From: a virus
DNA length: 64,000 nt
IMG/VR virus record: IMGVR_UViG_3300009161_000003
Coordinates: 48,923-112,922 of that record
Direction: 5' to 3' (one strand)
The stretch's first letter is position 1. The number at the start of each line of letters is the position of its first letter. Both the position numbers and the translations under genes were made by a program. The notes below the pieces were generated by a model that had not been told where the DNA came from, did no database searches, and was given only the letters and a program-made list of their open reading frames with translations. This document shows, in pieces, positions 9,611 to 55,500 of this stretch.

Positions 9611-9640
9611 ATTATAGCAGATATATGAGAACTGTGTCAA
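9611..9640 (-). promoter_or_regulatory. Consensus sigma70/SigA promoter TTGACA-N18-TATAAT with extended TG
   Basis: Exact hexamers at 9635-9640 and 9611-9616. Confidence 0.85.
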
Positions 9641-9645
9641 ACTGA

Positions 9646-12337: not shown

Positions 12338-12341
12338 ATCG

Positions 12342-14655: not shown

Positions 14656-14683
14656 TATATTCCTTTGTTTAGACAAGTATACA

Positions 14684-14989: not shown

Positions 14990-15007
14990 AGTTTAACTAC
15001 TTTCTAT

Positions 15008-15679
15008 TTATTTTAACAATGAGTCTTTTTTGTAATATTCTTCTTGATATCTTAAAAAGTTTTTATTTTTAACCCAAGAATTCATTCTTTTTTCTCTTTC
15101 TTCTTGGGCTCTTGCTACAAAATTTAACTCTTCAAAATCTTTTCTTGTTGAAAAATGCATAGTTAAAACTTCAGTATTGTCTCCATCATTAAACAATATT
15201 GGATCTCTCCAATGAATTGTACCTGCACCCCAAAAAAGAAGAAGGTCTCCATATTCAAGACTAAATTCATCTTCTTCAATAATAATTGGCCAATCAATAT
15301 TTTTATCTAATTGATAATCAAGCGTTAGTTTACTATAGTAATTATCAGAATCAAAATGTGGTGGAAGTTTTGGATTTACATCATCACCATGAATTTTATT
15401 ATAACTTAAATAAGAATTATGACTCATAAAAACTTCTTCACCAATAATTTCACAGGCAAATGCTTCAAGTTTTTTTCTTATTTTTTCTGGATACAAAATT
15501 TCAATTTGCATTCTTGACATTTTTGGTATAACCAATGGTCTATAAAATTCAGGCAAAGAATCGTCAACTTTTTGTTTTTCTACAATTGCCAATATTTCAT
15601 CAAGTTCTTCTTTGGTAAAGAAATCTTTTATAATATGTGGAGTTATGCTATTCTTAGGTTTATAATTATCTAGATACAT
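15008..15679 (-). CDS. 2OG-Fe(II) oxygenase-like protein, probably leaderless
   Basis: IIKDFFTKEE N-terminus, LPPHFD (HxD) and distal HWR; TATAAT 6 nt upstream of the ATG at 15679. Confidence 0.7.
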   Translation of the reverse strand: MYLDNYKPKNSITPHIIKDFFTKEELDEILAIVEKQKVDDSLPEFYRPLVIPKMSRMQIEILYPEKIRKKLEAFACEIIGEEVFMSHNSYLSYNKIHGDDVNPKLPPHFDSDNYYSKLTLDYQLDKNIDWPIIIEEDEFSLEYGDLLLFWGAGTIHWRDPILFNDGDNTEVLTMHFSTRKDFEELNFVARAQEEREKRMNSWVKNKNFLRYQEEYYKKDSLLK

Positions 15680-28766: not shown

Positions 28767-29350
28767 GATTCCTCATTTCCAAGATTTGTCTTATATATTG
28801 TACCACTTTGAAGAGTTTCAATCTGAATATTTTCTCTTGGCCCTAAATTTATTGCTTCTATAACTATTGCGCCCATTGTTAGATCTGACACAATTATGCC
28901 ACCTTGATCATTTCTATAAACATTTATTCCATCTGGTCCATTTCCCACATTTGGAACTTTTGTTTCTAATTTAATTGGAAAATTTAAAAAGTATTTGTCT
29001 GAAGTATCTTGCAATGCAATAATGTTTTTAGGGTTTAAGGCTCTTATTGTTTCTGCCATATTTGAAATTGGTTGATAAGAAATTGTGCCAGTATCTAATT
29101 TTGCACTATTTGTTAAAGATAGCAAGGCTACACCATTAATCTGTTCAAAAAAAATTAACTTAATAAAGTCTTGGTCTGGTTCTGCATCGCCTTCTTTATC
29201 TCTATTAAATTTAACATATTGTGGAGTTGCAATTTTTACTGGAGATTTTACAACTAAGTTAGGTGATAAATTAACAGAAGGTGGAACTGGCATTACTTCA
29301 TATTCATATTGATACTCTCCATCTGAAATTAATGGCACGTTACACCTCAC
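28763..29350 (-). CDS. Putative minor tail protein
   Basis: Coupled ORF within the tail module. Confidence 0.5.
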   Translation of the reverse strand: MRCNVPLISDGEYQYEYEVMPVPPSVNLSPNLVVKSPVKIATPQYVKFNRDKEGDAEPDQDFIKLIFFEQINGVALLSLTNSAKLDTGTISYQPISNMAETIRALNPKNIIALQDTSDKYFLNFPIKLETKVPNVGNGPDGINVYRNDQGGIIVSDLTMGAIVIEAINLGPRENIQIETLQSGTIYKTNLGNEES

Positions 29351-32300
29351 TCAAATATATAGTCATGTCTGGTCCACTTAAACTTCTTGAATACTCTATA
29401 TTATAAACAACAAATCTTGAAGTAGAAGATGCTACAAGATCTAGACCATTATTGTTTTTATAATCAATTGAAATAATATCCCCTAATTGAATTGTTGGAT
29501 TAGCAAAAATTTTTAATCCAATTGATTTTTTAGGAACTATTAGTTTATCAAGCAGCCAACCAATTAATTCCTCTGCCTCTTCTGTTGTTTGTATGTATTC
29601 AACATTTATGTTAAAGTCTGTTCTTCCATGTTTAAGTCTGCTTAATTTAATATTATCATATTTTTCTTTTTCTAATTTTGGTGAATAAACTATTACATCA
29701 CCTTTAAGTTCTGGGTCTGAAAAGTTTGATCGTTTTTTAAAATAATCATCTACTGTTAGTTCGCTACTGCTATCACTAGTAAAAGCAATACCCATAATTT
29801 GCAAAGTATTAGATGTATCTGTACCAAGATTTAAAAGACTATCTGTTGCATTAAATACCAAAAACTCTGCTCCATAAGCATTTGCTTGGAATCCAGAGAC
29901 TGTATATTCTTTTAGTTTATCTGGTGCCATTACTATTTTTGCATATAGTGCTGGATATGCATTATCAAATTTAGCATTAATGTATGCACACTCTCTCATT
30001 ATAGTTCCAAATTCATCATAAAAAATATTAAATTTTGGTGTTGTCAATGTGTTAATGCCTTTTAAATAAGACTCTTGTAAAATTCCACTTAGTGCGTATT
30101 TTTTAATAGCATCATTTGCTGTAATTGATCTGTTTGAAAACGTTCTCGATATTTGATTATTAATTTCAAATCCTGTATTTTTTGAATAGTTGTCTGATAA
30201 AGCATAAATATTTTCAAACATACATTTTGAAGAACCACGAACAAACAAAGCCGTTGATTGATAGTTTGGCAAAGGATCTAAGTCGTCAACTTGAGCAATA
30301 AGTTCATTATTAATATACAAATAAAACCTTCTTATATTACTATTTGCTAAGTCTTCATACTCTACGGCTAAGTCGTATATGCTAGTGTTTTCTTCATTGT
30401 ATTTTCTTGATATACCAAAAAATTCTCCCGAATCATAATTAATTGTTTCATCATAAGTACTAAATAGTTTAACTGGAACTGCTTTACTTTCACCAACACC
30501 TGCAACAACTTTATAAAAGATAACATTGTGTGTATCTGTTGTTGCATTGTCTAATGCAATTATTTCAAAATAATATCCTAAATTTGTTGTTGGATTTAAC
30601 AAAACTGCAATTCCTCCAGAGTTTCCAGAAATATTAATTTTTTCTTCTGGCGCTGCTGTATTGTTGCCTTGTTTAGACGCATTGTTTTCATAATAAGTCA
30701 TTCCATTTAATGGAATTGATTTAATAACTACTTTGCCATCTGCTGTAGTTGTTTGACCTTGTGGTTCTCCAACAATTCTAATTCTAGTTCCAAAATGTTT
30801 AAAAACAGATTGATCTAATGTTTTATAAACATAAGACAAGTTATCTCTTGGAGAAAGGTCTGTTGTAACAAAGTCTTTACCTTTAAAAACAAGAGCAGAG
30901 GATTGAACAAGTCCTTTATTTTTTGTTGGGTCTATAATTGTAACAGATGCTCTTTCTGTTTCTGTAAGTGCATACTCTGATAAAAATCTTTTAATTACTC
31001 CATTTACTGATGCTGCTTCTGCAGAAGTAATTCCAGCAGCAACTGTACCATTTAAAGTCCCTTCAAACTCTGTTCCTCCAAATAAATATTGAGAAGACAT
31101 AAGAACGCCTTTACGATTATCTTTATTGCTCCAATAGGGGTCTAAAGATGCTGTATGGTTTTGAATAACAGTTCCAAATTGAGCCCTTCCACTTTGAACA
31201 ACTGGACCATTAACCATTCTAGTAACTCCATTAATAGTTTCATAGTATGGTTCTGCAAAAATTCTTACTTTTCCCGTTGGAAAAATTTTTCCACCAAATT
31301 TTAATTTATTTAAATAATTTTTATATTCAGAGTCACTACTTATAAAAACATTTCCAAATCCTTCAACTGAGTGCTCTACAGCATCGTATCTAATTATTTC
31401 TCCACTTGAATAAAAATATCCTTGCTGCCTAGATATTAAATAAATCCCTTCGCCAAAATCAATAATATTATTAATAAGTTGATTGTTGACTACGGTTGGA
31501 AGTACTTGGGGAAGGGTTGAGTTTAAAGCAAGTGCAGAAAGGGTAAATCCACTTGACCTACTATCTTTTAGTTCTTCTTGATTTGAAATTTCCCATAAAG
31601 CAGATGGTTTGTATACCCAATATTTATTTTCTGCACTTGATGCAATCTGCTCGCCAAATGCAGAATATGTTTTATCAATGTATCTTGTTGTATAACTAAT
31701 CTTGCCATCATTGTATATTTTTTTATCTTGTGAAGCAATACTAATTATGTTAGCAAGTTTTTTGTTAGGCAGTGTTTTATTTTGAATAATATTTGCTGTA
31801 CTTTCTGCAAGAGAGGGAGAACCTCCTAAATTTATTTCATCCCATTCAGTAGTGCTATAAGATCCAGCATCCACAGTTTCAGTTGGCTCAGTGCTATATG
31901 TTGAAGCATCATCAAAATCTGTAATAATCTCTGGAACTGGTCCTGTAACTTTAGAACCAATCATTACAGTATCAACAGATCTTTGTGTTGCTGTTGGCAT
32001 TAAATAATTTTTACTCATTGCAATAAAATTATTATATTCATCAAAAAACATTGCAGTTTGTGTTGAAGTAGCCAAACTATTTAAAACTTGTGCAACGTTG
32101 GTATCAGGACCCACATAAAAATAAGGAATAATTGGATCTGATTCTCCTTCAATTCTTTTATAAATATAGTTACTAAAACCAATAGAGTCTAACAAAATTG
32201 ATATTGCATAACTAATAGATATATTTGTAAGAAATAGTTTTGGTGCTGTTATTGATTCAAAATAAAAATAAAAATCTCTTAACTCTAAGGAGATTGTTCC

Positions 32301-33851
32301 TCCAGTTATATCTGCTTGTGGCATTCCTTCTGCATATAATGTTTTAATTGGAACGCTATAGTTTTTATTACTTACATTTAAGAATGTTTCATAAAAATTA
32401 AATTTAAGGTTTTTGGTAACATATTTAGCAATAATACTATTTGTATTGTTTTCATTAAACGCTTGATCGTCATCAAATATTGATATGTTTCCAGTAGAAG
32501 CCAGCAACTGTCCAACTGGCAAAGAGCCATTGCCAAGATCAGACAACTGCTTAGTTATAGAATAACTAATAGTTTTATTTGATATATTGGCAACTAATCT
32601 TGGAGACATTTCAATTAAATCAAAAGTAGCCTCGTACTTGTTCATTTGTTCTGCAACAATTCTTACACCTTGAATATATTGAAATTCACGATATACTCTT
32701 TGATTGTTTTTAATAAAATATTCTGGAGATGTAAAATCTGTAACAAAGTTTGTTTCTTTGGTTAAATCTAAATTTGTTAATTGCCATCCATAGTCTGGCA
32801 CAAATGTATCGTAAACTTTTGTTGTGTCGTTCCATACATAATAAATTCCTTGATCTGTTGCACTTGAAGAAAGCAAATAGGCATATCCATCAATTGATCT
32901 TGTTGGTAGTACGGTAGTAGAAGATATTTTTTCAACATGTCTAAATCTAGTTTTAAAATCATTTGGAATAATTAAACCATAAGACAATTCTACATAACCA
33001 TCTTCTTTAATTATAACGGTTGAGTCATCTCTTAAAGAGTTTGCATTAAAAGTTTTTGCTGAGACCCAAGAATTATTTAACAAATATTCAATACGCCAAA
33101 CAACAGGAACTTGTTTATTAGAGTTTCCAAAAAGTGGATCTGCAATGGGACTTGTGACAGTGTTGAAAGGGCCAAGATCTTTTGTTCCAACATGTGTTTG
33201 CATTTTGACAACAATTCGATTTGCTGGAACTGTTTCTTTATATACTACAAATGGTGCAGCATCTTCAATTGGATATTGATTATTTACAGATTTTTTTGAT
33301 ATACCCCGTTCTGTTGTGGTAAAGGATGTAGCACTTTCTTTTTCTGTTCTAAACGATGTCCAATATTTAAACTCATCATATCTTGATCCTATATAGTATC
33401 TTGGTCTTTGTGTAAAAAAACTAGTTGCTCCAATAGTAGAATCAGCAAAGACTTGATTATTAATTAAGTTAGTATTAAAATTATGAAGATATCTTCCTTG
33501 AATATAAAACGCTTTGTTGATTCCTGATCTTGGTCGGAAAGGTTTAAGACAGTCTTCTAAAGAATAAAGTCCTGCATATTGTTCTTTAAGTGTTGAAAAT
33601 AATGCTGGCTGGTCACTATTAGTAAAACCATTATCAACTACAATATCTGCATCTGTTGCTCCCGTGTAAGAATTGCCAACATCATTTGCATCAAATGAAA
33701 GTGGTGCTTTTCCTGTATCTCTATTTCTATAATTTCCTAATTTAAAAATGTTATCTGGAACATTCATATTCCACTCTGCTAAAATAGTTGAACGGGTTTC
33801 AACTGTTGCAGAATTTTCTAAATGGTTCTTTAAAGTTGTATCAAGAAACAT
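29340..33851 (-). CDS. Large tail-tip/hub protein (1503 aa)
   Basis: Second gene after the TMP; hub-like motifs A.FFDEYNNF and C-terminal NP.IQLGD.I.I. Confidence 0.65.
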   Translation of the reverse strand: MFLDTTLKNHLENSATVETRSTILAEWNMNVPDNIFKLGNYRNRDTGKAPLSFDANDVGNSYTGATDADIVVDNGFTNSDQPALFSTLKEQYAGLYSLEDCLKPFRPRSGINKAFYIQGRYLHNFNTNLINNQVFADSTIGATSFFTQRPRYYIGSRYDEFKYWTSFRTEKESATSFTTTERGISKKSVNNQYPIEDAAPFVVYKETVPANRIVVKMQTHVGTKDLGPFNTVTSPIADPLFGNSNKQVPVVWRIEYLLNNSWVSAKTFNANSLRDDSTVIIKEDGYVELSYGLIIPNDFKTRFRHVEKISSTTVLPTRSIDGYAYLLSSSATDQGIYYVWNDTTKVYDTFVPDYGWQLTNLDLTKETNFVTDFTSPEYFIKNNQRVYREFQYIQGVRIVAEQMNKYEATFDLIEMSPRLVANISNKTISYSITKQLSDLGNGSLPVGQLLASTGNISIFDDDQAFNENNTNSIIAKYVTKNLKFNFYETFLNVSNKNYSVPIKTLYAEGMPQADITGGTISLELRDFYFYFESITAPKLFLTNISISYAISILLDSIGFSNYIYKRIEGESDPIIPYFYVGPDTNVAQVLNSLATSTQTAMFFDEYNNFIAMSKNYLMPTATQRSVDTVMIGSKVTGPVPEIITDFDDASTYSTEPTETVDAGSYSTTEWDEINLGGSPSLAESTANIIQNKTLPNKKLANIISIASQDKKIYNDGKISYTTRYIDKTYSAFGEQIASSAENKYWVYKPSALWEISNQEELKDSRSSGFTLSALALNSTLPQVLPTVVNNQLINNIIDFGEGIYLISRQQGYFYSSGEIIRYDAVEHSVEGFGNVFISSDSEYKNYLNKLKFGGKIFPTGKVRIFAEPYYETINGVTRMVNGPVVQSGRAQFGTVIQNHTASLDPYWSNKDNRKGVLMSSQYLFGGTEFEGTLNGTVAAGITSAEAASVNGVIKRFLSEYALTETERASVTIIDPTKNKGLVQSSALVFKGKDFVTTDLSPRDNLSYVYKTLDQSVFKHFGTRIRIVGEPQGQTTTADGKVVIKSIPLNGMTYYENNASKQGNNTAAPEEKINISGNSGGIAVLLNPTTNLGYYFEIIALDNATTDTHNVIFYKVVAGVGESKAVPVKLFSTYDETINYDSGEFFGISRKYNEENTSIYDLAVEYEDLANSNIRRFYLYINNELIAQVDDLDPLPNYQSTALFVRGSSKCMFENIYALSDNYSKNTGFEINNQISRTFSNRSITANDAIKKYALSGILQESYLKGINTLTTPKFNIFYDEFGTIMRECAYINAKFDNAYPALYAKIVMAPDKLKEYTVSGFQANAYGAEFLVFNATDSLLNLGTDTSNTLQIMGIAFTSDSSSELTVDDYFKKRSNFSDPELKGDVIVYSPKLEKEKYDNIKLSRLKHGRTDFNINVEYIQTTEEAEELIGWLLDKLIVPKKSIGLKIFANPTIQLGDIISIDYKNNNGLDLVASSTSRFVVYNIEYSRSLSGPDMTIYLSEV

Positions 33852-34478
33852 TTACACTTCTTCCATAGAAACCGATACGTCCCATAAGTCATGGTTGGTT
33901 TGACCACGTTTTGTAACGGTATATGAAAAATCAGAAATATAAACTTCAACAATTTCAGTATATTGATCTAAGTGTGCATATCTATCATCGGTTTGATCAT
34001 CCGCAAAATTGTTAAACTTGTCATACGATAGGAACATCCAAAATGGTCCAGTGTGGTTCTCATACCAATCTAGCATTTCTACACCGCCAGCACCCCCGTC
34101 AGCCGTGTATTCTGACCCCTGTGTAGTTACTCCAGTAGAGTCTACCCAGTCTGGTCTTCCACCATATGATCTTGAAGGAATGTTATTCCAACTTGTGCTA
34201 ATTGTATTTTTATCAGCAATATGAAAAGACCTCATGTTGCCATTTACCATTCTTTGCCTTTGTTCAATTCTTTCTGTTTTAAAATCTAATGGTGCTCTGT
34301 TGTGATCAGATAAGATTAAAAATTTATTTAGATTTGTAGTAGCAGTTGTATATGCACCTATTTCAATTCCGTCTGGAACGTAAATTCCATTTTGTAATGT
34401 ACCTGGATTTTCTGACCAGATAATGGCTTGTGGTCTTCCAAAACGTTTTCTTCCTGCGGTATATGCTGCGGTAGCCAT
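33852..34478 (-). CDS. Distal-tail-like protein
   Basis: Immediately after the TMP; RM.NG.MR....ADK..I..SW motif and C-terminal V.MEEV. Confidence 0.6.
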   Translation of the reverse strand: MATAAYTAGRKRFGRPQAIIWSENPGTLQNGIYVPDGIEIGAYTTATTNLNKFLILSDHNRAPLDFKTERIEQRQRMVNGNMRSFHIADKNTISTSWNNIPSRSYGGRPDWVDSTGVTTQGSEYTADGGAGGVEMLDWYENHTGPFWMFLSYDKFNNFADDQTDDRYAHLDQYTEIVEVYISDFSYTVTKRGQTNHDLWDVSVSMEEV

Positions 34479-37400
34479 TAGTAACCCCTAATTCTTTGAT
34501 TTTCAATCATCTTAATTTGATTGATAACTGTTCGTGCAATATCATTTGGATTGGCATTACTGTTAGAAACATTAACGCTAAGGTTATAATTATACAGGGT
34601 TTTGGAATTATTTACTTCTGTTTGTGACCCACTAAGATTTTTAATAGAGGACATTGCTTCAGGAGTTGTAAATGTTGGTGAGTTTATAGCACCAAGAAGA
34701 GGCCCAAAACTTTGTGTTGCTTTTTTATTAACAACATATTCTCCAGGAGTAAGCATTGCTGGAACAGTATCAGTTCCACGAGCCAGACCACCAGATGCCA
34801 TGTATTTAGGAACCATTCCACCCATTGCACCAGTAAATCCAGGAATGCCGAGATAGTTTAAAGGGTTGTAGGATGATGTTTTGGGTGCAGTCTGCTTTTT
34901 GGGCATATCGCCAACCCCACCCAAATATCTGCCAAATTGGGTGGCCCAATCAAGTGCTGGTGCTGGTGCTGCCGAAACTAAAGTCGCTGCTGCTGCTTGG
35001 GCTGCTGCTTGCGCTGCTGCTGCTTCTTTTGCTTTAATTGCATCTTCTGCTTTTTGATCAGCAAATGTTGTATTACCTTTAGTTCCAAGTTCTGCTTTTG
35101 CTGCTTTCATTGCAGCATCTGCTGCCTGGATAGATTTTGTTACATCAGTTAATGCAAGTATTGTTGAGTCAGCATCTCCCTTTACATTCTTAAGAATATT
35201 TCCAAGGAATTTAGAATCATTTGGATCAATACCTGCTTCTAATGCTAACTTAATAGCACTACCTGCTGCTGCAATTTCAACTCTTGTTAGTCCTAAAGTA
35301 TCTTTAAGAGTTAAATCAAGTTTATCTTTTGCAAGTCTAATGTTGTTTGTTATATCACTTAAACGATCTGCAATAACTTTATTGTCTGCCTCAATTTGAA
35401 CTCTGGTTAATCCGTTTGGAGAAGTAACAGATTCAAGTGCATTTGTTTTTGCTTTTTGCAAGGCTTCCATTCTTGTTTTTGCAACTTGTTGAATTTTTGC
35501 ATTTCGGTAATCTTGCATTGCACTGCTTGCTGCACTAATATCTCCCTTTGCAAGTGCATCAGCAATTGACATTTTTGTTGAAATAAGTTGATTATTTTTT
35601 TCAGCAAGAGCATTGATCTCTTCTAATGCTGAAATCTGTTTATCATAAGTTTCGTTTATCTTATCTTCTTGCCTTGAAATTAAATCTAAATTATAGTTAT
35701 TATCATTTTGTTTTGTTTCTAATTTAGATTGCTCAAGAACATATTGGTTTTCAATTAGTTTTTCTTGCAATGCCACAAACTTCTCAACTATATTAAATCT
35801 TGCAACTTGACCATCCATCTCATCCATTAATGCTATCTTTTGAGCATTATCATATTGTTTTTGTGCTGCAGTTAATTCTTCTGTTTGTGTTAATAATTCT
35901 TTAAGTTGGGCTGGGCTAAGTTCTTTATTGGCAATAGCAAGTGCAATGGTTTGATCACTTGCTAACTCCATAGCCTGTGCATAACTAAATCCAGCATTAC
36001 GCAAAACAGACATAGCGCCTACTTGGTTTTTAATTCCAGCAATTTTATCTGTTAGTTGGGTTTGATATTCTCCCAATTTAATTGCTGTAAATGCTTTATT
36101 TAATGCATTTCCCAATTCAGTTAATTTCATTGAAGCAGTGCCTGCACCAGTAGTAATTTTGGCTAAATCTTCTTGCAATCCTTGTGGGCTCATAGCATCT
36201 ACAAAGTCTAAGAAATCTCTGCTTACTTTTCCATCTGCCATTAATTTTTGATCAATACCTTTAAATTGTGTTATTGATGCATTTTTGCCCATTACTTTTT
36301 TTAATTCTTCTGCTCCACCAATTGCATTAATTGTTGAGTTTTGAACAAGTTTAAGTTTCTTAAGTGTGTCATCATATGTAGTATCTCTTTCGCCACCGCC
36401 ACCTTTTTTTCCTGGTTTAAATGCTTTACTAGCATCTTTTGCTGCTTCAGTTATTTTGTTTGCTTTGTCTGTTGCCATTAAATCCGTTACTTGTTTTGCG
36501 GTTGTTAATTTTACACTTTTTTTATAACCTTTAGGATTAAACTTTCTGTCTTTTGCATCTCCTGTTAAAGTTCCTACTTTATTTTTATTAAATGTTAGTC
36601 CTTTTTCACCCATAAAATTTTTAACATCTTGGCTATTTAGATCAATAGTTTCTGTTGTAGTTACCAGTGCTGTCATGTATATCTTTTTTTGTTCATCTGG
36701 AAGTTTGTTGTAATACTCTAAATCAGTGTTTAATGCGCTTAGTGCTTTTGGATTTGCTCCTAACAATTTTGTGGTAACTTTCATGTCAATTTTACCTTTT
36801 TGTTTTTGTATCTGTGCTATTGTTGTTTGCAAAGCAGCAGCACCAAGTTTATTTTTTTCAACGTAGTTACCAATAACTTCCATATCTAAAACAGTTCCCA
36901 TTTTTCCAAGCGTTCCATAAAAATCTATAAGTTTTTGTGCTTCTTCAGGGGTTTTTCCGTGAACACTTAAAACAAGATCTTTTTGTATTTGATCTAAATC
37001 TTTTCCTGTGCCTTTTTCAGTAAACATAGAAGCAACTGCCATAGCCTCATTTCCAACTACTGCACCAAATCTTGTCGTTATATCCATAAACTTTTGTGCG
37101 CCTGCTTTGTCTCCAGTAAACATATCAACCATATTTAATACTTGCATTGGATCCATTTGACCAGACGACAACTGCATGTTGATTAAATATTCATGTTCTT
37201 TATTTAATCCTAAACTTTGTATTTGTTTTGATGCTTCTTCGGCAACTGGTGCTAGAGCAGTTCCTTTATATTTATCAATTGCAGCGCTTCTTGCTCCTTT
37301 TAATAATAAAGTTTGTACTTTTCCATCACTTGCTTTTTTATAAGAATTTAATATATCTGTATTAAGTGATGCATTTGTGGCAAGCAGTTTTATTCTTCCA

Positions 37401-40400
37401 GTTTCATATTCCCCTCTTAATTTTTCTGCCTCTACAAGTTTTCCTTCTGATTCAAGTAATTGTATTTTCTTTTGATTTTCAAGATCATAAGAATCTAAAA
37501 GTTCTTGACTTTGTTCTAAAGCAATTTTTTGCATTGCAACGGATGCTCCAGTTGATTTTGCAATTCTATCATTTCTTTGTTTGGCTCCTATTATTGCTCC
37601 TCCTATTCCGCCAATAATAGTTCCAGCAACGGCTCCAATAGCAGTTCCTATTAATGGAACAATACTACCAACTATTGCACCTGCTGCTGCGCCAGCGCCC
37701 ATACCAGCAGCAACACTACCTACCCCAATTACAATATCTTTTGGATTTTTTTTAAAACTTCCTGAAGCATTTGCTGCATTAGATGCAATATCCATTCTGG
37801 TTTTACTATCTTGAATAAGTTGTGTTTTAATTGTTAAAGGATCTTTAAGAAGGTTTTCACCTTTTGGTCCAAATAAATCAATTAGTTTGGCGTTTACAGT
37901 TATGCCAAGTGCTCTATCACCCATTGCTTCACCAATATTTGCAGCAACACTTCTTGCTTGTGCTGGTGTCATAATTCCGCTAGATATTGCTGTTGCAAGT
38001 TGAGCAGTTAATTCGCTTTGTGCAAGTTGTTGTCCACCTGGGCCGCCATCTTTTATTCTTTGTCCAAAATCTTTAACCATTTGTTGTCCTTTTTCACCTT
38101 CAACAAATGATTCTCCAAATGTTTTTTTGCCTGTTTTAATTTGAAATTGAGATAGTTTATCATTTCTTCTTCTATCCATAATTTCTCTTGCAGAAACTTT
38201 TCCAGTTGTTTCTGCTAGTTCTTTCATAGATTTTGCCCCTGCGCCCATATTAACTGTTGTCTCTATTGTTTTCTTTAATAATGCTTCATTTGATTTCTTT
38301 AAAATAAAATATGTTGCAGCAAGTCCAACAATTCCTACTGCTAGCGCACTCTTTGGTCCTTGAATCATTGTCATGGCCATTGTTGCTGCAGTTAATCCAC
38401 CCAAGGCTCCTTGATATTTTTGAGCAGTTTCATTACCCATCATACCTAGTGCCATGTTTCCCATCATAACTGTTGACATTGCCATGCTAGAACGTTGCAT
38501 CATTTTTTGGCTTCTTGCCTGTTGTGCTGCCCTTGTTTGTTCATCTACAGGTGCAGAAGATTTGTTAAAATTAAATCTAGATTTTTGTGTTTTTTCTTCT
38601 TCGTTTGTCAGTGCTTGAGCCCTTGCTTTTGATGCTGCAATTGTTGCTGCCTTTGATGCTGCAGTTGCTTTTTTTGTTTTGTTACTTTTAGAACGAATGT
38701 CACCAGTTTTCCTGTATTGAATATTTCCAGAATTCATTGCTTGAAGAATTGGACCATGTTTTTGTGTTGCTGCTTTATTTACTACAAACTCTCCAGGTGT
38801 TAGTAATGCTGGTACAGTGTCCTTTTCTCCATACCCTGGAACTGAACCACCAGACGCAAATTTCTTTGCTGTACTAAAATTTTTAAATCCGATTCCTTGT
38901 CTCATTTTTAAATAGTTATAAATCATATTTGGTGCTCTTAACATTTTTTGATGTGATTCTGGTAGTAAATCAAAATCTTTTTGGCTTCTAGGGAAAAGCC
39001 CCATAAGAGCAGTAGCATTAGGAGATTTAGCAATCATTGCATTTGCTGCTTTGACAACGTGAGAACTAATACCACCAATTTGTTTTAATCTTGCCACTCC
39101 TTTGTTAGGATCTACCTTACCTCTAGATGTCATTCCTTTATCTGCAGATCTTCCTGCTCTGTAATCGCTTGCAGCAAGTTTAACTATATTTTTTGTTATA
39201 TCTGCTGTACTATTTCCTTGAATAGCCATAAAACGTTTGTATAGTCTTTTATAGGTTGGACCATTTATGCCTTCTCCTTCAGACATTGCACCAGCAAGGG
39301 CATATCTCATTCCCATTTCTTTTTTCCATTTAGTAGGATTTGAATGTATTTTTAAATTAGTGTCAAGATCTGCTAAGGCCATTTTCATAAATTTAGTATC
39401 TTGTTCTAATTTTATTGCACTTTGTTTATTAGGTGGTTGTGGTGGTCTTGATGTAAGTTCTGCTAATCTATTTTCAATACTTTTCTTTGATTTTACTGCA
39501 TCTTGATAAGTTAAAGGATATGGTTTTGCAACATCAAGGCCACTTTGTTCACTAATTTGATTATAGCCGTGATTTCCTAAAATAGTAAAACCACTGTCAA
39601 TCTTTTTTCCAAACTTTGAACCAGCAGCAGTATGTAAGTTTGAATCTTTTCCACTTGTAAAATGTAATTTTTCTAAAGAGTTTAAGGTTGGATCATATTC
39701 TCCTCTTAATCTAAAACCTCTAGAAACCAATATTTTTCTAAATGCTGGATCTTTAATTGAAACTCTATGACCCTTTTCTCCTGGTCTTTGAACGGGTTGA
39801 GTTGTTGGTTTTTTAATGTTTTGAGTTTTTCCTTCAGCGTGTATTTTATGAATTTCTTTCCAGTTAATCTTCTTAGCGTCTTCAACTCTTTGAACCATCT
39901 GAGAGTAAGCAACTTTTTCTTCTGGGTTAAGATTAAAAGACCCAATAGAAGATTTTAATTTAGGAAGAACTCTATCTAATTCTTGTATCATTGCTTTTTC
40001 ATATTGTGCAGGAGTCATTGATTGTGCTATTGATCTTGTTGCATCAGCAAAGTATCTTTTTGCCCCACCTTTTACTCCTAGGAAGTTTACCATTGCTTGA
40101 TCTTTTACTGGAAGCATTCCTCCAAAGTTTCTTTTTCCAGATGCAGTTCCAAAAACTCCAGCAGGCCCTACGTCAGCAAGAATACTTCCAGACAAATTTG
40201 ATTTTGATAAATCTTTGTCTCCTCTAACAACAGAAGCAACTGCCTGCTTAACAAAATCAGATTTTGTAAATTCACCACTCATTGCTGCAAATCTTGGATC
40301 AAACTTAGACTCTAGAACTATTAACCTTCTACTTGGATTATTTGGATCAACCATTGTGGATAACTTTTGTTCTGGTGAAACTAATCCATGAACATCTCTT

Positions 40401-42967
40401 GCAATTGTTGTTCCACGCATTTCTGCTAAAGCAGATTTTTCATCTAAGAATGGTTTAACAAAAACTTTAGATCCGTCTGGTCTTTCATAAATACCACCAA
40501 TTCCAGGAACTGGAAAACTTCTTCCACTTGATTCTGCAACTAACTTTCCAAAGTTTTTTGGTCTAACTTTACCAAGATTACTATTTTTAACTTCATTATC
40601 AATTTCATCTAATACTGCATCTTGTTGTCTTACATCTTGAACTTGTTTAAAATTATTAGGCATTCCTAAAAATAATTTTTTCTTTTCTGCTTGTGCTTTT
40701 TGTTTTGCAACAAGTGCTTTAGCATATTCTATTGATCCTACACGGAATTGTGGTAATGTTGGATCATATCTTGGTCCACCCTTTATTTCTCCAGCATAAG
40801 GATCTCCTCCAGTTCCATTACCACGTAAAACAAATCCACCTTTATTTAATCTTTGTAAAAATCCTTTATTTTCTTGTGCTGCGTCTTTTGTTACAACAAA
40901 TTCTCCTGGAGTTAATACTGCTGGAACTGTATCTTTATTTCCCGTTCCAGGAACAAAACCTCCTGATGCAAATTTTTTTGGACCTAATCCGCCCTTCATC
41001 ATTCCTGGATTTATTCTTGCAAAATTTATTCCTGCAACGTTTGCTTTTTGGTATGCTGCTGCCAAAGCGGTTGCTGCTGCAGTTTCTGCTGTAAATGTTT
41101 GAATTAATCTTGAGTGTGATTGATTAAGGGCTGTAGCAACTGTTGCTGCTTCAATTTGTTCAGAAGACATGTATCTAGTTTGATTACCTAAAAAGTTAGA
41201 TTCTTTTCCTAATCCTAAAAATCCATTTCTTAGTGTTAAAAATAATTTAATTATATTTGCTGCACCGTTGGCAATTAAACCAAAGGTCATGAGCAATGCT
41301 GGTCCTACTAATCCAACTGCTCCAATTAACATTACAATTGCTTTTTTACTTCCATCTCCAAGCCCGTTAAATTTTTCTAATATTTTTCCAATAAATTCTA
41401 CAATAGGAGTTATTGCTTTAAGGAATTGTTGTCCAACTGGAGCAAGCGAAACTTTAAGGTTTTCTAATGATTTTTTAAATTTAGTTCCAGTTGCATTTTC
41501 TACTTTTGCAAGTTCTCTTTCTGAAAGAATTGCAAGTTCTTCTATTGATGCTCCTGCTAAATCTAGTGTCTTTGAAGCCTGTGTTCCACTTTGTGTAACG
41601 TTTTGAAATAATGTTGATAAACGTGAAAATTGAAACTTGCCAAACAATTGTTCAATGGCTCTTGATCTTTCTAGTGGAGCAAGTGTATCGAGTGCTTGTG
41701 CAAACTGGATAACAGTATCTTTAATATTACCTTTGTTTGATTCAACAATTCCATTAATGTTAATGCCTAAATCTAAAAGAAACGCTGATGCTTTCTTTGA
41801 TGGATTAATTAATGATGCAAGACCAGATTTTAGTGCGTTAGCACCTTCTGAAGCATTGATTCCACCTTCTTTCATTGCAGTCATAAAGAATGCAAGATCT
41901 TCAACATCTCCACCAAGTTGACGAATAACTGGTCCTGCTTTAGGAACTGCTATAGTCAAGTCTTCAATATTTAAAACTGTTTGGTTTTCTACAGCGTTAA
42001 GAAAATCAATTTTACCTTTTAATTTATCTGCTTGTATTCCAAATGCATTTGTTAATGATATGGTAGTTTTTAAAGCATCTGCTTGTTCAACGCCACCAAG
42101 AACGGCAAGCCTTGTTGCTTCCGCAACTTGCGCCATTAAATCAGAACCCATCTTTCCGGTAGCAGCAGCGTCTGCAGCCATCTCCATTGTTTTCTCAACA
42201 GCAACGCCATACTTTGTAAATGATAAGGCTAATAGTTGTACTTCTTTTAATGCTTTTTCTGCTTCTCCAGAAGTTGTAAACATTTCTCCATATACACGTT
42301 TAAATCTAACTGCTTGTTTTTCCAAAGCCATAAATGTTTTTCCTGCTGTTGTTCCAAGCATTGTTAGTGGAACGGTAAAACCAACCATCAACTGACGTCC
42401 AGCCCATTGAGTATTTTTACCAAAGTTTAATAGGTTAGTAGAACCTTGTTTTAATAGTTGTCCAAATAATTGTTGTTTCTGTGCAGCAATAGCAGTCTTT
42501 GTTGCTAAATGATCCATGTCTAATGCAAGCGGTCTTACTGCTATTGATTGAATTGCACCGTTTGCTGTTCTACCCATTTTAATATATTGGGTCTGCATTG
42601 TTTTAAGACGTTCTTCTGATACCTTGCCAATTGTGTCATACTCTTGTTTGAAAAGCCTACTAAATGTTTTTGTTGCACCACCAGCATATCTAAAATATTC
42701 TCTAGTGGAAAACTTGTTTCTTTCTAATGAATCGGTAAAACTGTCAGCAGAACTTTTTATTGTCGTAAGACCTGCTGAAAACTTTCCAGTAGCATTTACT
42801 GAATTTATAAGATTGCTTTGTAGATTTGCTTGTGCTTTCGCAGCAGCGGAACTTGTAGTTGCAACTGAAGCATGAAAATTTGCAAGTTGTCTTTGAAGTG
42901 CTTTTAATTGTCCAAGTGCTTGAGAGGCGTCGAGATTAACCTCAATATTGGATTGTACATCAGCCAC
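34478..42967 (-). CDS. Tape measure protein (TP901-like core) with an inserted kinase-like cargo region
   Basis: 2829 aa, Ala/Gly/Lys-rich and helical, with hydrophobic segments; follows the tail chaperones; three GG..PG.G..DTVPA.LTPGE(F/Y)VV repeats. Confidence 0.92.
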   Translation of the reverse strand: MADVQSNIEVNLDASQALGQLKALQRQLANFHASVATTSSAAAKAQANLQSNLINSVNATGKFSAGLTTIKSSADSFTDSLERNKFSTREYFRYAGGATKTFSRLFKQEYDTIGKVSEERLKTMQTQYIKMGRTANGAIQSIAVRPLALDMDHLATKTAIAAQKQQLFGQLLKQGSTNLLNFGKNTQWAGRQLMVGFTVPLTMLGTTAGKTFMALEKQAVRFKRVYGEMFTTSGEAEKALKEVQLLALSFTKYGVAVEKTMEMAADAAATGKMGSDLMAQVAEATRLAVLGGVEQADALKTTISLTNAFGIQADKLKGKIDFLNAVENQTVLNIEDLTIAVPKAGPVIRQLGGDVEDLAFFMTAMKEGGINASEGANALKSGLASLINPSKKASAFLLDLGININGIVESNKGNIKDTVIQFAQALDTLAPLERSRAIEQLFGKFQFSRLSTLFQNVTQSGTQASKTLDLAGASIEELAILSERELAKVENATGTKFKKSLENLKVSLAPVGQQFLKAITPIVEFIGKILEKFNGLGDGSKKAIVMLIGAVGLVGPALLMTFGLIANGAANIIKLFLTLRNGFLGLGKESNFLGNQTRYMSSEQIEAATVATALNQSHSRLIQTFTAETAAATALAAAYQKANVAGINFARINPGMMKGGLGPKKFASGGFVPGTGNKDTVPAVLTPGEFVVTKDAAQENKGFLQRLNKGGFVLRGNGTGGDPYAGEIKGGPRYDPTLPQFRVGSIEYAKALVAKQKAQAEKKKLFLGMPNNFKQVQDVRQQDAVLDEIDNEVKNSNLGKVRPKNFGKLVAESSGRSFPVPGIGGIYERPDGSKVFVKPFLDEKSALAEMRGTTIARDVHGLVSPEQKLSTMVDPNNPSRRLIVLESKFDPRFAAMSGEFTKSDFVKQAVASVVRGDKDLSKSNLSGSILADVGPAGVFGTASGKRNFGGMLPVKDQAMVNFLGVKGGAKRYFADATRSIAQSMTPAQYEKAMIQELDRVLPKLKSSIGSFNLNPEEKVAYSQMVQRVEDAKKINWKEIHKIHAEGKTQNIKKPTTQPVQRPGEKGHRVSIKDPAFRKILVSRGFRLRGEYDPTLNSLEKLHFTSGKDSNLHTAAGSKFGKKIDSGFTILGNHGYNQISEQSGLDVAKPYPLTYQDAVKSKKSIENRLAELTSRPPQPPNKQSAIKLEQDTKFMKMALADLDTNLKIHSNPTKWKKEMGMRYALAGAMSEGEGINGPTYKRLYKRFMAIQGNSTADITKNIVKLAASDYRAGRSADKGMTSRGKVDPNKGVARLKQIGGISSHVVKAANAMIAKSPNATALMGLFPRSQKDFDLLPESHQKMLRAPNMIYNYLKMRQGIGFKNFSTAKKFASGGSVPGYGEKDTVPALLTPGEFVVNKAATQKHGPILQAMNSGNIQYRKTGDIRSKSNKTKKATAASKAATIAASKARAQALTNEEEKTQKSRFNFNKSSAPVDEQTRAAQQARSQKMMQRSSMAMSTVMMGNMALGMMGNETAQKYQGALGGLTAATMAMTMIQGPKSALAVGIVGLAATYFILKKSNEALLKKTIETTVNMGAGAKSMKELAETTGKVSAREIMDRRRNDKLSQFQIKTGKKTFGESFVEGEKGQQMVKDFGQRIKDGGPGGQQLAQSELTAQLATAISSGIMTPAQARSVAANIGEAMGDRALGITVNAKLIDLFGPKGENLLKDPLTIKTQLIQDSKTRMDIASNAANASGSFKKNPKDIVIGVGSVAAGMGAGAAAGAIVGSIVPLIGTAIGAVAGTIIGGIGGAIIGAKQRNDRIAKSTGASVAMQKIALEQSQELLDSYDLENQKKIQLLESEGKLVEAEKLRGEYETGRIKLLATNASLNTDILNSYKKASDGKVQTLLLKGARSAAIDKYKGTALAPVAEEASKQIQSLGLNKEHEYLINMQLSSGQMDPMQVLNMVDMFTGDKAGAQKFMDITTRFGAVVGNEAMAVASMFTEKGTGKDLDQIQKDLVLSVHGKTPEEAQKLIDFYGTLGKMGTVLDMEVIGNYVEKNKLGAAALQTTIAQIQKQKGKIDMKVTTKLLGANPKALSALNTDLEYYNKLPDEQKKIYMTALVTTTETIDLNSQDVKNFMGEKGLTFNKNKVGTLTGDAKDRKFNPKGYKKSVKLTTAKQVTDLMATDKANKITEAAKDASKAFKPGKKGGGGERDTTYDDTLKKLKLVQNSTINAIGGAEELKKVMGKNASITQFKGIDQKLMADGKVSRDFLDFVDAMSPQGLQEDLAKITTGAGTASMKLTELGNALNKAFTAIKLGEYQTQLTDKIAGIKNQVGAMSVLRNAGFSYAQAMELASDQTIALAIANKELSPAQLKELLTQTEELTAAQKQYDNAQKIALMDEMDGQVARFNIVEKFVALQEKLIENQYVLEQSKLETKQNDNNYNLDLISRQEDKINETYDKQISALEEINALAEKNNQLISTKMSIADALAKGDISAASSAMQDYRNAKIQQVAKTRMEALQKAKTNALESVTSPNGLTRVQIEADNKVIADRLSDITNNIRLAKDKLDLTLKDTLGLTRVEIAAAGSAIKLALEAGIDPNDSKFLGNILKNVKGDADSTILALTDVTKSIQAADAAMKAAKAELGTKGNTTFADQKAEDAIKAKEAAAAQAAAQAAAATLVSAAPAPALDWATQFGRYLGGVGDMPKKQTAPKTSSYNPLNYLGIPGFTGAMGGMVPKYMASGGLARGTDTVPAMLTPGEYVVNKKATQSFGPLLGAINSPTFTTPEAMSSIKNLSGSQTEVNNSKTLYNYNLSVNVSNSNANPNDIARTVINQIKMIENQRIRGY

Positions 42968-42990: not shown

Positions 42991-43308
42991 TTATATATTA
43001 ATTAAAGCACTATCTGACATGTTTGTTCCAGATGCTGCTTCAATAATTTTGTAAACTGTAGGTAAGTCTAGATTTTCCTCAAGAGACTTTAGGTCTTCTG
43101 ATAAATCAGGCTTATACTGTTGCATAGCAATTTGAACACATTCCATAAGAATACTCATTGACTTATCGTTGTCTTCTGCTACTGCTGCAATACCCTCAAA
43201 TTTCTTCATAAAAGGACGGAGTAGGGAAATCTTTAAAGGTCTAACTGAAACCTTTGTTCCGTCAATAAGAACTACAACGTTCTCATCTGCCTTTGTTGCT
43301 GCTGCCAT
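42991..43308 (-). CDS. Tail assembly chaperone (G-like, short form)
   Basis: Directly upstream of the TMP; homologous to the N-half of 43354..44073. Confidence 0.65.
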   Translation of the reverse strand: MAAATKADENVVVLIDGTKVSVRPLKISLLRPFMKKFEGIAAVAEDNDKSMSILMECVQIAMQQYKPDLSEDLKSLEENLDLPTVYKIIEAASGTNMSDSALINI

Positions 43309-43353
43309 TTGTTTCTCCTTTTGTTAAGTTAGTTAATTATATCACGAATAGGT

Positions 43354-44073
43354 TTATTTTTTAGTTAAATCTTCGTAATCTAAGCCCATTCCAATACCAA
43401 ACCCTGCTCTTGCTGCATTAGGACCTTGTAAAGACAATACATCGTTACCATCACTTGTTTGTCCACCACTGAAGACTCTTGCTTTCATGTCTTCCCATTC
43501 TTTTTGTCCCCTGCCATTTTCTGAATTTTTATCTAAATCTACTCCTTGAATTGCTGCTAAAAACTTTTTTTCTTCATAGTCTAAATCTCTTCTTGAGGAC
43601 AAGGTTTGCATTAATTCTGGAATAGAAAGAGATGCCTCTAACTCTTCATAGTTTTTCCATATGCCTAAAGTAAAAACCTCTGACTCTAGTTTTGCTAAAT
43701 CTAATTCAAACCAACCTTCATCTTTATCTTTTGAAATTTCTTTAATTGGTTTTATTTCTTTCTTATCAAGGTCTTCACCTTCTTTATTTTTTTGTTTTAT
43801 GTTAATTCCCGCAGCAATTTCAATAATATCGTATAGAGTATTAAGATCAATGTGTTCATCTAAATCTAAAAACAAATCTGGACTATATTGTTTCATGCAT
43901 ATTCTACAACATTCCAACAAAATATCAATAGATTCTTCATCATTTTGTGATTTTTCAAGAAGGACAAATATATCCATAAACTCTCTCATATATTTAATCT
44001 TTAAAGGAGAGCACTCAAGAACTTGATTGTTTAATAATACAATTTGAGATGTTTTAAAAACTTTTGTAGCCAT
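43354..44073 (-). CDS. Tail assembly chaperone (GT-like, long form)
   Basis: Between major tail and TMP. N-half PLKI...R.FM...QY.PDL...DL.T.Y.IIE.A.G matches 42991..43308; has an extra C-terminal domain. Confidence 0.6.
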   Translation of the reverse strand: MATKVFKTSQIVLLNNQVLECSPLKIKYMREFMDIFVLLEKSQNDEESIDILLECCRICMKQYSPDLFLDLDEHIDLNTLYDIIEIAAGINIKQKNKEGEDLDKKEIKPIKEISKDKDEGWFELDLAKLESEVFTLGIWKNYEELEASLSIPELMQTLSSRRDLDYEEKKFLAAIQGVDLDKNSENGRGQKEWEDMKARVFSGGQTSDGNDVLSLQGPNAARAGFGIGMGLDYEDLTKK

Positions 44074-52535: not shown

Positions 52536-55500
52536 TTATGCTGGAGGTAATACAGAACTTTGCCAAATAGCGTCTTTAATTACAGAAACCTCATCTGTTT
52601 CTATGTAAATTCCTTCATTATCATCTATAATAATTTTATTTGTTCCAGTATAGTTGTTATAAACCTCACCAGCATTAACAATATACCTACTGTCCCTTCT
52701 TTTAACTAAAACGTTATTCCAATCTGCAATTGCAAAAGCACTTGTAATATTGTCCCAATATCCCCAACTTTCTTCCTCAACCTCTTCCCAAGACCTGTAA
52801 ACGTTGGACAATTCCAACTGTGATCTTGTTCCTTTATAAAAAGAAATATTGTTAAATGTCATAAGATTTCTTAAATTAATCTTTCCATTAAAAGTATTAA
52901 AGTTTAAGTTTGTTGGAAAAGACATGCCTAAAACTGTCCATCTCTGAATACTAAGCGTTGGATCAGAAACATACAATCCGTCTACATAATAATCAATTAA
53001 ATTATAAGGAAGGTTGTCAGATTTTGTTTTTGCAAAAATTCTTCCTCTATCTGCATTTGATGAGTTAGCCTGAATATAAAATTGTAAAGTATCAACAGCA
53101 TTTTCTATTTCAAATATTAAAACTGGGTTTTGTGGAAAACCCCATAAATCTAATCTTAAAAATAATTGCATTGCACTTATAGAAAAAAGATCTATTTCTG
53201 TTGGATTAACATCAATAGATATTCCACGATATAAGTTAGTTGTTCCTCCTATTAATTCAATACCGCTTTTTCTTGTTAGGTAAAGATATGGTGCACTTTC
53301 TTTGTCAATTAAGTATGAGTTTTGAGCCTTGTAATCATACAATTCTGTTGATCCAGATTCTTGCTCTAAAACATACGGCTCTATATCTATTGCGTATCTA
53401 GTTGTTATTGGATTAGGAACTGTTGCATTAAAAGTTTTTGCAGCAAGTTCTAATTTTCTTAAAGAAACTTGATTGTGTAAAATGCCAAAAACTTTAAAGG
53501 TTAAAAGATAAACTATTGCAAGATTATTAAAGTCAACTGTTTTTGATGGATAGATTAAGTAGTTGTCAACAATTTCAAACCTTTTTGTTTCCCAATTTGC
53601 TTCTTCATTTAAATCAAGAATTTTATTTTTAAGTGCTGGCATTGTTGTTGTGTATTCAAAATCTGTTTGTGTAACATTTTCTAAAATATTTTGAAAAGTA
53701 ACAAATGCTCTTACGTTAGAATTATCTGTATTAATTGACTCACTATTATCTATCCAATATCCAGACTCTTCTCCACTTTCTTCATCTTGAACTTCTGATG
53801 GTGATGGATAGTCAAGATTAAATTGAATAAAATCAATGTCTAAAACTGTTTCTTCTAAAATATTTAAAGAGTTTTTTGCAAGGGACGACAATGGAGTATA
53901 AGATTCCCAATAACCAAATGTTGCAATATCAATAAAAAATCCACCATAGTCTTCAAAAGAAAACAGGCTATAACTTCCAACATGATCAATAAAATTAGCA
54001 TTTGCAACTGCAGTTCCGTCTTCTTCAAAATAAGTGCTTATTGTATTTGTATGTTTAAAAGTATTTAAAGATACTTTATAAATATTGCCAGTAAACATAT
54101 TTGATGCATTAGGCCTACTTCCAACATATAACTTTAATGACGATGGGTTTGAAAAAAATTGAGATAATCCATCTACTAGACTTTCTTCAAGTAACTTTGA
54201 TATTTGAATTCCCGCAGAAAAAATTCCTGTTGGACAGGCTACTGTTTTAATAACTACTGATGGATCTCCTGGAGCAAGATTGTGTCTAAATAAATATTTT
54301 AAATTTCCTGATTCTCTTTCAATACTAAAACTGCTACTTTCTTTTTGTAAAAACAATAAAGTTCCATTTGTATTTTCTGTAACTTTAAAAGTTCCAACAA
54401 TTGAATCTAAAGAGTTAGAAAGAAAGGAAAGGTTTTCAAAATAAACATAAGAATTGCCAGTCCATTGATTGGATGGTTTTAAAGTAAAAAATTTATTTGT
54501 TTCATTTTGAATTAATTTATTATCGGCTTCTAATTCTCTGATAGTCTTTGTTCCAGAAGATCCAGTTAGAACAAAGTTGGGCAGGCTATAGTTTGGTGTT
54601 TTTAATCTTACAACATCTGGAATTAGTGTATCTGCTGATCCAGAACTCCAGGCTCTAGTGGTTGGAAAAGTAACGTTGTTACTATAATTTGCAAAAGAAT
54701 AATCTATTTCTGCAGTAGAACCCCCATAATATGAATCTATAATCTGTGGTGTTCTTGGAACTCCCTGACCTAAAATATAATGAATTTTTGCAGCATTGTT
54801 TAAAATAGAATAAGGATATATAGCAATACAATCTATTTTAATTTGATCTACAAGAGTTTCATAAGCGTAAATTCCAATCCAATCATTACTCTTGGTAGAG
54901 TATTCAACTGAATATTCAGGTGGGAGGGTCATGGTAGAAGTGTTTATTGAAAGAGTTCCAACATCTTCTCCGTTTACCATAAGTGTTGCTTGATCTCTAA
55001 TAAGTTTAATATGAATAATCATTGGCCTAAACCATTCGCCAACATAATGTGAAACAAAGTTTCCATCAATAGCAAGAGTTAAAAAACAATCTTTTACATA
55101 TAAACCATCTGTTGATGATATTGGACCTAAAATTCTTTTTGCATCTACTGTGTTTGCATCTGCTTGTAACCAAAATTCTAAAGTATAATTATTGTTTCTT
55201 CCAGATTCATTTAAAAATCCATATCCTGGAAAAATAAATGATGGTTTAGTATTAATAATTAAATCTTGTTCTTCTGTAAAAAATTTAACATCTGTCCATG
55301 ATTCTTGTTGATCTTCCCAATAACTCCAACTTTCATCTTGAACTTGATCCCAGGTTCTATAATCAATTACCTCTGAGTGTGGAATTATTTCAACAGCCCT
55401 AGCAGAACCATAGACAAGGGGAACACCAAAATTTTTGGCAGTTAAAGAATTATGTTCTACAACATAATATCCTTTTTCTGCATTAAGTCCATAAGCATCT

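Follow-up and report, generated by a model that had tools for sequence, protein, structure and literature searches.

What does a globular, kinase-like segment do in the middle of a phage tape measure protein? The question is raised by a 64,000-nucleotide stretch of viral DNA (positions 48,923 to 112,922 of IMG/VR record IMGVR_UViG_3300009161_000003), referred to here as the window, in which a single open frame encodes a tape measure protein (TMP) of 2829 amino acids (aa) with such a segment after its N-terminal part. A first-pass annotation of the window had quoted a peptide from this segment and described a kinase-like domain of the HipA/PI3-4K type. The peptide is found in frame in the 2829-aa open reading frame, and the interval assigned to the domain, 39850-40520, corresponds to aa 816-1039. 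The location was right, but the domain starts earlier, at aa ~765, with an LFLGMP block and a helix at aa 773-795, and its true extent is ~39833-40675. The conserved domain spans aa ~765-1045 and the self-contained module, of about 300 residues, aa ~746-1065; the models and searches described here indicate that it very probably has a kinase fold.

34478..42967, minus strand: tape measure protein gene, 2829 aa, single open frame
39833..40675, minus strand: kinase-fold module of the TMP, aa 765-1045, placed by AlphaFold2 model and fold searches

An AlphaFold2 model of the module, built from a 44-sequence alignment with no templates, has a mean predicted local distance difference test (pLDDT) score of 85.9 and a predicted template modelling (pTM) score of 0.83. 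The kinase fold that the first-pass annotation had proposed from motifs is borne out by this model and by two structural search methods. With VIA-align, run against 48,161 representative chains, all of the top 50 neighbours are kinase-fold proteins. The best of them is CotH (5jda; Z 12.2, 218 residues aligned, root mean square deviation 3.8 A, 9% identity), and the others include PI4KII-alpha (Z 10.5), MavQ (Z 10.2), CtkA (Z 9.8) and HipA (Z 9.3) as well as the kinase folds of Fam20C, actin-fragmin kinase, PI3K/PIKK, RIO and Bud32. Foldseek against the PDB returned kinase matches only, with CtkA ranked first (E 9.5e-4, probability 1.0), and re-scoring of the Foldseek candidates gave Z 11.0 for CtkA, 10.5 for PI4KII, 9.8 for LepB and 9.3-9.8 for HipA/HipT. 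Among the BFVD viral models, the Foldseek matches (E 6e-6 to 1e-3 range) are phage proteins annotated as PI3K/PI4K catalytic domain together with large portal-, head-morphogenesis- and ART-annotated phage proteins. A feature search of the ESM Atlas, which provides leads only, found LepB_N, PI3_PI4_kinase and HipA_2 as the nearest named clusters.

The predicted model satisfies the description of the protein-kinase-like superfamily in its bilobal fold, in the motifs of the N-lobe and in a D-x4-N pattern followed by a DFG-like Asp. The N-lobe is assembled from the Gly loop, a strand, the strand carrying K838, the helix carrying E849 and then two long strands. These are followed by a helix at aa 902-915, the loop D917-K-D919...N924, short strands and D932-V-G, and the model ends with a less confident activation-loop-like stretch and a helical C-lobe. 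N924 completes the D919-x4-N924 pattern, and D932-V-G comes 13 residues after the candidate catalytic residue D919. The coordinates of the motifs, checked by translation, are as follows.

40487..40504, minus strand: Gly-rich loop GIGGIY, aa 822-827, just before model strand E66-69
40454..40456, minus strand: K838 in VFVKP, candidate beta3 ATP-binding lysine, in model strand E75-81
40421..40423, minus strand: E849 in ALAE, candidate alphaC glutamate, in model helix H84-99
40196..40219, minus strand: candidate catalytic loop DKDLSKSN, aa 917-924 (D917, D919, N924), after model helix H143-156
40166..40174, minus strand: D932-V-G934, DFG equivalent, aa 932-934, a conserved column

When the segment was searched against 1.84 billion cluster representatives, 165 homologous clusters were recovered at E<=1e-3, 139 of them at E<=1e-30, and the segment is therefore conserved beyond chance. 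The listed homologues are mostly proteins of 2000-4400 residues, with the shorter ones mostly from short contigs, and overall identity among the domain homologues is 31-55%. The first-pass annotation had named a non-kinase fold, or a lack of conservation of the K/E/D/N/D residues in homologous TMPs, as what would speak against its reading; the residues are conserved in nearly every sequence. Of 234 domain copies collected, 216 cover all five positions, and in 215 of these the K-E-D-N-D set is intact. Taken singly, K838 is K in all 218 covering sequences and E849 is E in all 222, the remainder of the 234 being gapped there, while D919 is D in 228 of 229 sequences, N924 is present in 229 of 229 and D932 is D in 228 of 228 covering sequences. 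An alignment of 128 homologues gives the same picture, with G825, K838, E849, N924 and D932 at 100% and D919 at 99%. In the Gly loop, G825 is invariant and Y827 is 97% conserved, and G934 of the DFG equivalent is likewise 97% conserved. Other residues invariant in the family are G815, S817, Q908, R915, A942-S943-G944, N961 and a GVKGGAK loop. Judged on the model, the site is likely to be catalytically competent. The lone exception to the intact set is a metagenomic relative (P0093, aa 357-644) with Val in place of D919, which could be a natural inactive form or a sequencing error.

The sequence-family searches gave a different outcome from the structural ones. Neither Pfam nor NCBIfam nor PHROG holds a relevant match to the module, and comparison with all PDB sequences (phmmer and two profile searches) produced chance matches to designed helical, leucine-rich repeat and WD40 proteins only; among 38 relatives, none matched a Pfam kinase family even at E<=1. 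The HipA models PF07804 (HipA_C) and PF20613 (HipA_2) match neither the window protein nor the 38 relatives at E<=1, the entire phage genome contains no PF07804 match, and a HipB/HipS toxin-antitoxin context is absent, the domain being internal to a TMP with tail genes as neighbours; one Atlas cluster in which 46% of the members carry HipA_2 is a feature-level lead only. PI3/PI4-kinases resemble the module structurally (Z 8-10.5), and their model PF00454 gives no Pfam match, the catalytic loop D-L-S-K-S-N being without the R-H after the Asp. CotH (PF08757) yields no Pfam match and no PDB profile match despite its top structural rank, and for the eukaryotic-type protein kinases PF00069 has no Pfam match and the Foldseek template modelling scores are just 0.22-0.29. 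The label "HipA/PI3-4K-type" thus holds for the fold and the pattern of motifs but not as a family assignment, since no HipA, PI3_PI4_kinase, CotH or Pkinase model matches and CotH is structurally the closest. Because the module is unrecognised by the sequence models of Pfam, NCBIfam, PHROG and the PDB, it can be described, on its predicted fold, as a new sequence family of the kinase superfamily.

The protein that carries the module is a TMP by its family matches, by the position of its gene among tail genes and by its length and hydrophobic segments. PF10145 matches aa 252-443 with 81 bits, where the cut-off is 33.2 (E 1.1e-22). Over the first ~660 residues there are matches to nine PHROG TMP families, of which phrog_10030 (E 4e-93, aa 46-660) is the strongest. 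The protein is long and helix-rich, with A, E, K, L and Q accounting for 40-54% of the residues outside the cassette that holds the module (aa 720-1424), and this cassette is placed between a hydrophobic segment at aa 540-577 and further segments at aa 1538-1556 and 1745-1795.

41639..42214, minus strand: PF10145 (PhageMin_Tail) core of the TMP, aa 252-443, Pfam match
41237..41350, minus strand: hydrophobic segment, aa 540-577, upstream of the cassette (Kyte-Doolittle, 19-aa window, score up to 2.29)
37583..38356, minus strand: hydrophobic segment, aa 1538-1556, and glycine zipper, aa 1745-1795, downstream of the cassette (Kyte-Doolittle; PF13488, E 3e-5)

The boundaries of the cassette are marked by a peptide of ~50 residues that is repeated three times in the TMP, at aa 661-719, 1365-1424 and 2718-2777. 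Its core reads ASGG, a short variable stretch and then D-T-V-P-A-x-L-T-P-G-E-F/Y-V-V; it has no Pfam or NCBIfam match, and only phrog_35029 (function unassigned) matches it, in three stretches. It might serve as a processing site, a folding unit or an anchor. Of 113 full-length relatives, 99 have a copy upstream of the kinase at a median gap of 21 residues and nearly all have the C-terminal copy; an additional copy often stands directly after the kinase. The copies are ~73% identical as DNA, though conserved as protein. We had considered DNA direct repeats as drivers of cassette exchange and dropped the idea at this level of identity, which indicates no recent duplication.

40811..40987, minus strand: bounding peptide copy 1, aa 661-719, closing the backbone's N-terminal part (repeat and comparison with relatives)
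38696..38875, minus strand: bounding peptide copy 2, aa 1365-1424, at the cassette end (repeat and comparison with relatives)
34637..34816, minus strand: bounding peptide copy 3, aa 2718-2777, near the TMP C-terminus (repeat)
38876..39772, minus strand: variable region X, aa 1066-1364, opening with the invariant peptide GHRVSIKDPAFRK-I/L-LV-x-RGF

Two kinase-less relatives define the units within the cassette. P0183 shows 80% identity to the window TMP over aa 1-722, after which the match starts again at aa 1417; aa 723-1416, comprising the kinase, region X and peptide copy 2, thus constitute one peptide-bounded indel. P0198 is 73% identical over aa 1-731 and retains region X and peptide copy 2, so that the kinase (aa ~732-1065) is separable from region X. 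On either side of the kinase the same short junction occurs, G-F-V/R-L-R-G and within a few residues Y-D-P-T-L (40733-40843 and 39665-39790), and these shared junction peptides look like a trace left by modules being exchanged at a conserved linker. Among the closest relatives, identity is 76-97% in the kinase and 36-44% in the adjacent region X. Region X is common to just 4 of 150 kinase-bearing homologues; it has no Pfam match and no usable Atlas match, and its AlphaFold2 model, from 6 sequences, is mostly helical at low confidence (pLDDT 53). The 20-residue peptide that opens it (39713-39772, aa 1066-1085) directly follows the kinase and is invariant where the surrounding X has the 36-44% identity just given; as X is present in a kinase-less TMP, this peptide belongs to X and not to the kinase. 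For the same reason a candidate pseudosubstrate after the kinase, the peptide GHRVSIKD, was dropped. The kinase-less relatives P0197, P0198 and P0205 have a peptide-bounded bay of ~250 residues (aa ~720-970) that is related to X and has no Pfam match, and in further relatives M23, CHAP or LysM domains fill other bays.

How widely the module is distributed, and how independently of its backbone, was assessed across the TMP family. This phage group is abundant in metagenomes, with more than 4900 proteins in the TMP backbone family at E<=1e-20 to the N-terminal 660 residues and at least 249 IMG/VR contigs encoding the kinase domain. The 120 closest TMPs (68-100% N-terminal identity) include 77 with a kinase and 43 with none, at median lengths of 2892 and 2477 residues, respectively, and the kinase module is therefore optional within the family. 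Allele and backbone do not keep pace: on backbones 85-89% identical to the window TMP the kinase alleles are just 44-50% identical and sometimes sit at another position, and on other backbones, 83% identical, the alleles are 82-85% identical. This divergence between backbone and allele identities indicates that kinase modules are exchanged between related backbones. A scan of 13 diverse full-length relatives found PF10145 in all of them and, in single ones, an additional Peptidase_M23, CHAP or LysM domain. Stand-alone forms of the kinase were also sought, and the 26 proteins recovered, most on contigs ~3 times their own length, look for the most part like TMP fragments; four short forms on longer contigs (P0096, P0153, P0160 and P0168) might conceivably be split or stand-alone kinases. 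No prophage copies were found in 185,579 species-representative genomes, and the module is absent from the nearest cultured relatives, the Streptomyces BE-cluster phages. The TMP of Streptomyces phage Karimac (2099 aa) has neither the bounding peptide nor the kinase. The Karimac TMP (9055-15354) is close in length to the window TMP minus the aa 720-1424 cassette (~2120 aa); the cassette may add nothing to tail length, or the agreement in TMP sizes may be a numerical coincidence.

The setting of the gene agrees with that of known tail modules. The window is part of a complete virus record of 112,922 bp with direct terminal repeats, and the order of major tail protein, chaperones, TMP and minor tail proteins is that of the annotated phage Karimac, whose chaperone genes occupy the same position relative to the TMP as two chaperone-like genes do here. 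These two genes, at 42991-43308 and 43354-44073, both match phrog_10504, the longer one adding a C-terminal phrog_10474 part, and they look like two paralogous genes rather than a frameshift product. A WhiB protein is among the gene products of the phage, whose capsid protein shares 43% identity with those of the ~130-kb Streptomyces BE-cluster phages; on these two sequence features the host is probably an actinobacterium. Beyond the tail genes, a ribonucleotide reductase large subunit gene (56217-58256; phrog_367, E 1e-143) adjoins the structural gene block; between that gene and the head genes lies an open reading frame of 1215 aa (52536-56183) for which PHROG gave no match at E<=1e-3.

42991..44073, minus strand: pair of tail assembly chaperone-like genes immediately upstream of the TMP gene, both matching phrog_10504
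29340..34478, minus strand: genes for minor tail proteins, immediately downstream of the TMP gene (phrog_10359 minor tail protein, E 4e-57)

TMPs reside in the lumen of the tail and exit from it during infection, and delivery of the module together with the DNA, which the first-pass annotation had suggested for takeover or anti-defence, is plausible by analogy with the RNA polymerase that is fused to the TMP of Thermus phage P23-45. The reading we favour, and to which we would give an even chance, is that the module is a delivered protein kinase, that is, a virion-borne phosphotransferase acting on a host protein before phage gene expression. The module would be an active ATP-dependent phosphotransferase with a complete site for ATP binding, metal binding and phosphotransfer (Gly loop, K838, E849, D919, N924 and D932). 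Virions would contain it as a section of their TMP; when the genome is ejected, the TMP would carry it out of the tail, and it would regain its fold at the cytoplasmic membrane or just within it, flanked by the TMP's hydrophobic segments. Its target there would be Ser/Thr residues of a host protein, phosphorylated ahead of all phage gene expression in the service of takeover or counter-defence. We infer each of these steps, from catalysis and a folded domain after ejection to the compartment of action, the substrate and the benefit to the phage. In favour of this proposal we count the optional presence of the module, its clean absence from P0183 and P0198 and the swapping of its alleles, which suggest cargo-like behaviour, and the conservation of the kinase above that of region X, which points to selection on it within close relatives.

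Several observations weigh against the proposal. No kinase-family sequence model (Pfam, NCBIfam or PDB profile search) matches the module, and the kinase assignment therefore rests on predicted structure. The module was not found by tblastn in 50,697 cultured phage records. CotH, which heads the structural neighbours, is an enzyme of protein-coat assembly and not an injected effector, and the fold neighbours mix protein and lipid kinases, so that the substrate may belong to either class. Finally, the lumen of a siphovirus tail leaves little room for three TMP copies that each include a folded domain of 30 kDa, so the module would need to be unfolded or staggered while in the tail and to refold afterwards.

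The module may instead be a lipid or envelope kinase whose substrate, at the entry site, is a lipid of the membrane or a precursor of the envelope; it would change the local membrane and so either aid formation of the TMP channel or disturb envelope synthesis. PI4KII-alpha (Z 10.5), MavQ (Z 10.2), LepB (Z 9.8) and PI3K/PI4K-III are among the best neighbours, and the BFVD matches carry the name PI3K/PI4K catalytic domain. The module, which is basic with an isoelectric point of 9.5, lies between hydrophobic TMP segments. An actinobacterial host, supported by the WhiB gene and the 43% capsid identity to Streptomyces phages, would offer a suitable lipid, for actinobacteria have phosphatidylinositol in the membrane. 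We nevertheless regard a lipid kinase as rather unlikely. The protein kinases CotH, CtkA and HipA score as high or higher, so the fold does not discriminate between the two classes, the PI4KII-alpha paper itself names protein kinases, CtkA and Golgi casein kinase, as the closest structural analogues of that enzyme (PMC3974213), and the module has no PI3_PI4_kinase Pfam match and no identified lipid-binding element. The rank of CotH, an assembly kinase, as best single neighbour speaks for another possibility, in which the module works late in the producing cell, phosphorylating tail components, the TMP or the chaperones for assembly, or shutting down the dying host in the manner of HipA. ATP is surely present in that cell, and no folded domain would have to pass through the tail lumen. 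The distribution of the module, however, makes such a role unlikely: its absence from 43 of the 120 closest TMPs and from the Streptomyces relatives, which build long tails without it, means that it is not needed for tail assembly, and allele swapping between near-identical backbones is more like a host-interaction cargo than a co-adapted assembly factor.

The two remaining alternatives concern the fold and its chemistry. A kinase fold that transfers no phosphate, whether as a pseudokinase, as a nucleotide-binding scaffold or with another chemistry such as the AMPylation or glutamylation known for some kinase-fold proteins, would be in keeping with the lack of sequence similarity to any characterised kinase family and with several family-specific invariant residues that have no assigned role. 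In a pseudokinase, however, retention of the five catalytic residues in 215 of 216 sequences would be unlikely, and D-x4-N with D-x-G 13 residues past the catalytic Asp is the arrangement of phosphotransfer, so we consider this alternative distinctly unlikely. A resemblance arising by chance or from modelling, with the segment as a globular spacer in the ruler, seems very improbable indeed: middling Z values are given to many models, the typical best Z without a clear match being 7-8, but the value of 12.2 exceeds this background, 50 of the 50 best matches fall in one superfamily, three independent fold searches concur, and the invariant residues are exactly the catalytic ones, on the right elements.

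If the module is active and delivered, as in the proposal of an injected protein kinase, it would equip the phage, from the very start of infection, with a ready-made enzyme of signalling or toxin type, and invariant catalytic residues combined with allele swapping are what would be expected of an arms-race effector. A broader and more tentative proposal, which we think possible but rather doubtful, is that the TMPs of these uncultured, probably actinobacterial phages form a modular injection platform in which the bounding peptide fences exchanged cargo bays, the commonest cargo being an active kinase of a new family that would enter before the DNA and phosphorylate a host protein or, in an actinobacterial host, phosphatidylinositol before phage expression. 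The module also offers a concrete test system for folded enzymes travelling through a siphovirus tail.

Enzymes embedded in TMPs are known chiefly as muralytic domains, among them M23 peptidase, CHAP, LysM, lytic transglycosylase and Rpf motifs. The window TMP has one recognisable enzyme module and region X, for which no confident fold was obtained, and some of its relatives have M23, CHAP or LysM besides the kinase. In contrast to the module, muralytic domains work on peptidoglycan outside the membrane and do not depend on ATP, whereas a kinase does and must therefore reach the cytoplasm. For this the closest precedent is gp96 of Thermus phage P23-45, an RNA polymerase fused to the TMP that is present in the virion within the full-length TMP and is on the phage DNA 5 min after infection (PMC10770324). 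Both are giant TMPs with membrane segments and a non-muralytic enzyme for cytoplasmic substrates, active early in the one and, on our proposal, in the other. The P23-45 enzyme, however, is an experimentally shown, N-terminal two-barrel RNA polymerase, whereas here the module is a predicted kinase fold that follows the TMP's N-terminal part, is bounded by peptides and is optional.

By its predicted fold, the module belongs to the protein-kinase-like superfamily near CotH, Fam20, CtkA, PI4KII and HipA. CotH of Bacillus cereus (5jda, PF08757) shares the protein-kinase-like fold as the best structural neighbour, but it is a stand-alone kinase of spore-coat assembly and not part of a virion, and the module is 9% identical to it with no PF08757 match. 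CtkA, HipA/HipT, PI4KII-alpha, MavQ and LepB (Z 9.3-11.0) have in common with the module a G-x-x-D-x4-N motif followed by a metal-binding Asp, and HipA, CtkA, MavQ and LepB are toxins or effectors that hit targets of another cell or of a host. The module differs from HipA in having neither its N-terminal subdomain nor a HipB-like partner, and its catalytic loop reads D-L-S-K-S-N and not D-R-H-x-x-N or D-x-H-x-K-N. A further parallel is provided by the polyvalent proteins, multidomain virion-associated proteins predicted to supply the host, on entry, with ready-made enzymes, Ser/Thr-type kinases among them (PMC5512222). Like them the module appears to be modular, swappable cargo, and its BFVD neighbours include portal-, head-morphogenesis- and ART-annotated phage proteins. 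Unlike it, the kinases described there are without the C-terminal lobe, are found chiefly in Verrucomicrobia-Chlamydia and Bacteroidetes prophages and have links to MuF or other head proteins; tape measure proteins are mentioned nowhere in that paper (0 occurrences) and lie outside the published definition of polyvalent proteins. In the searchable literature, which is incomplete in coverage, we found no account of a TMP with a kinase as its cargo. Enzymatic cargo in a TMP is thus already known from other phages, and the new element, on the sequence comparisons and the predicted structure presented here, would be a cargo of kinase fold from a new sequence family.

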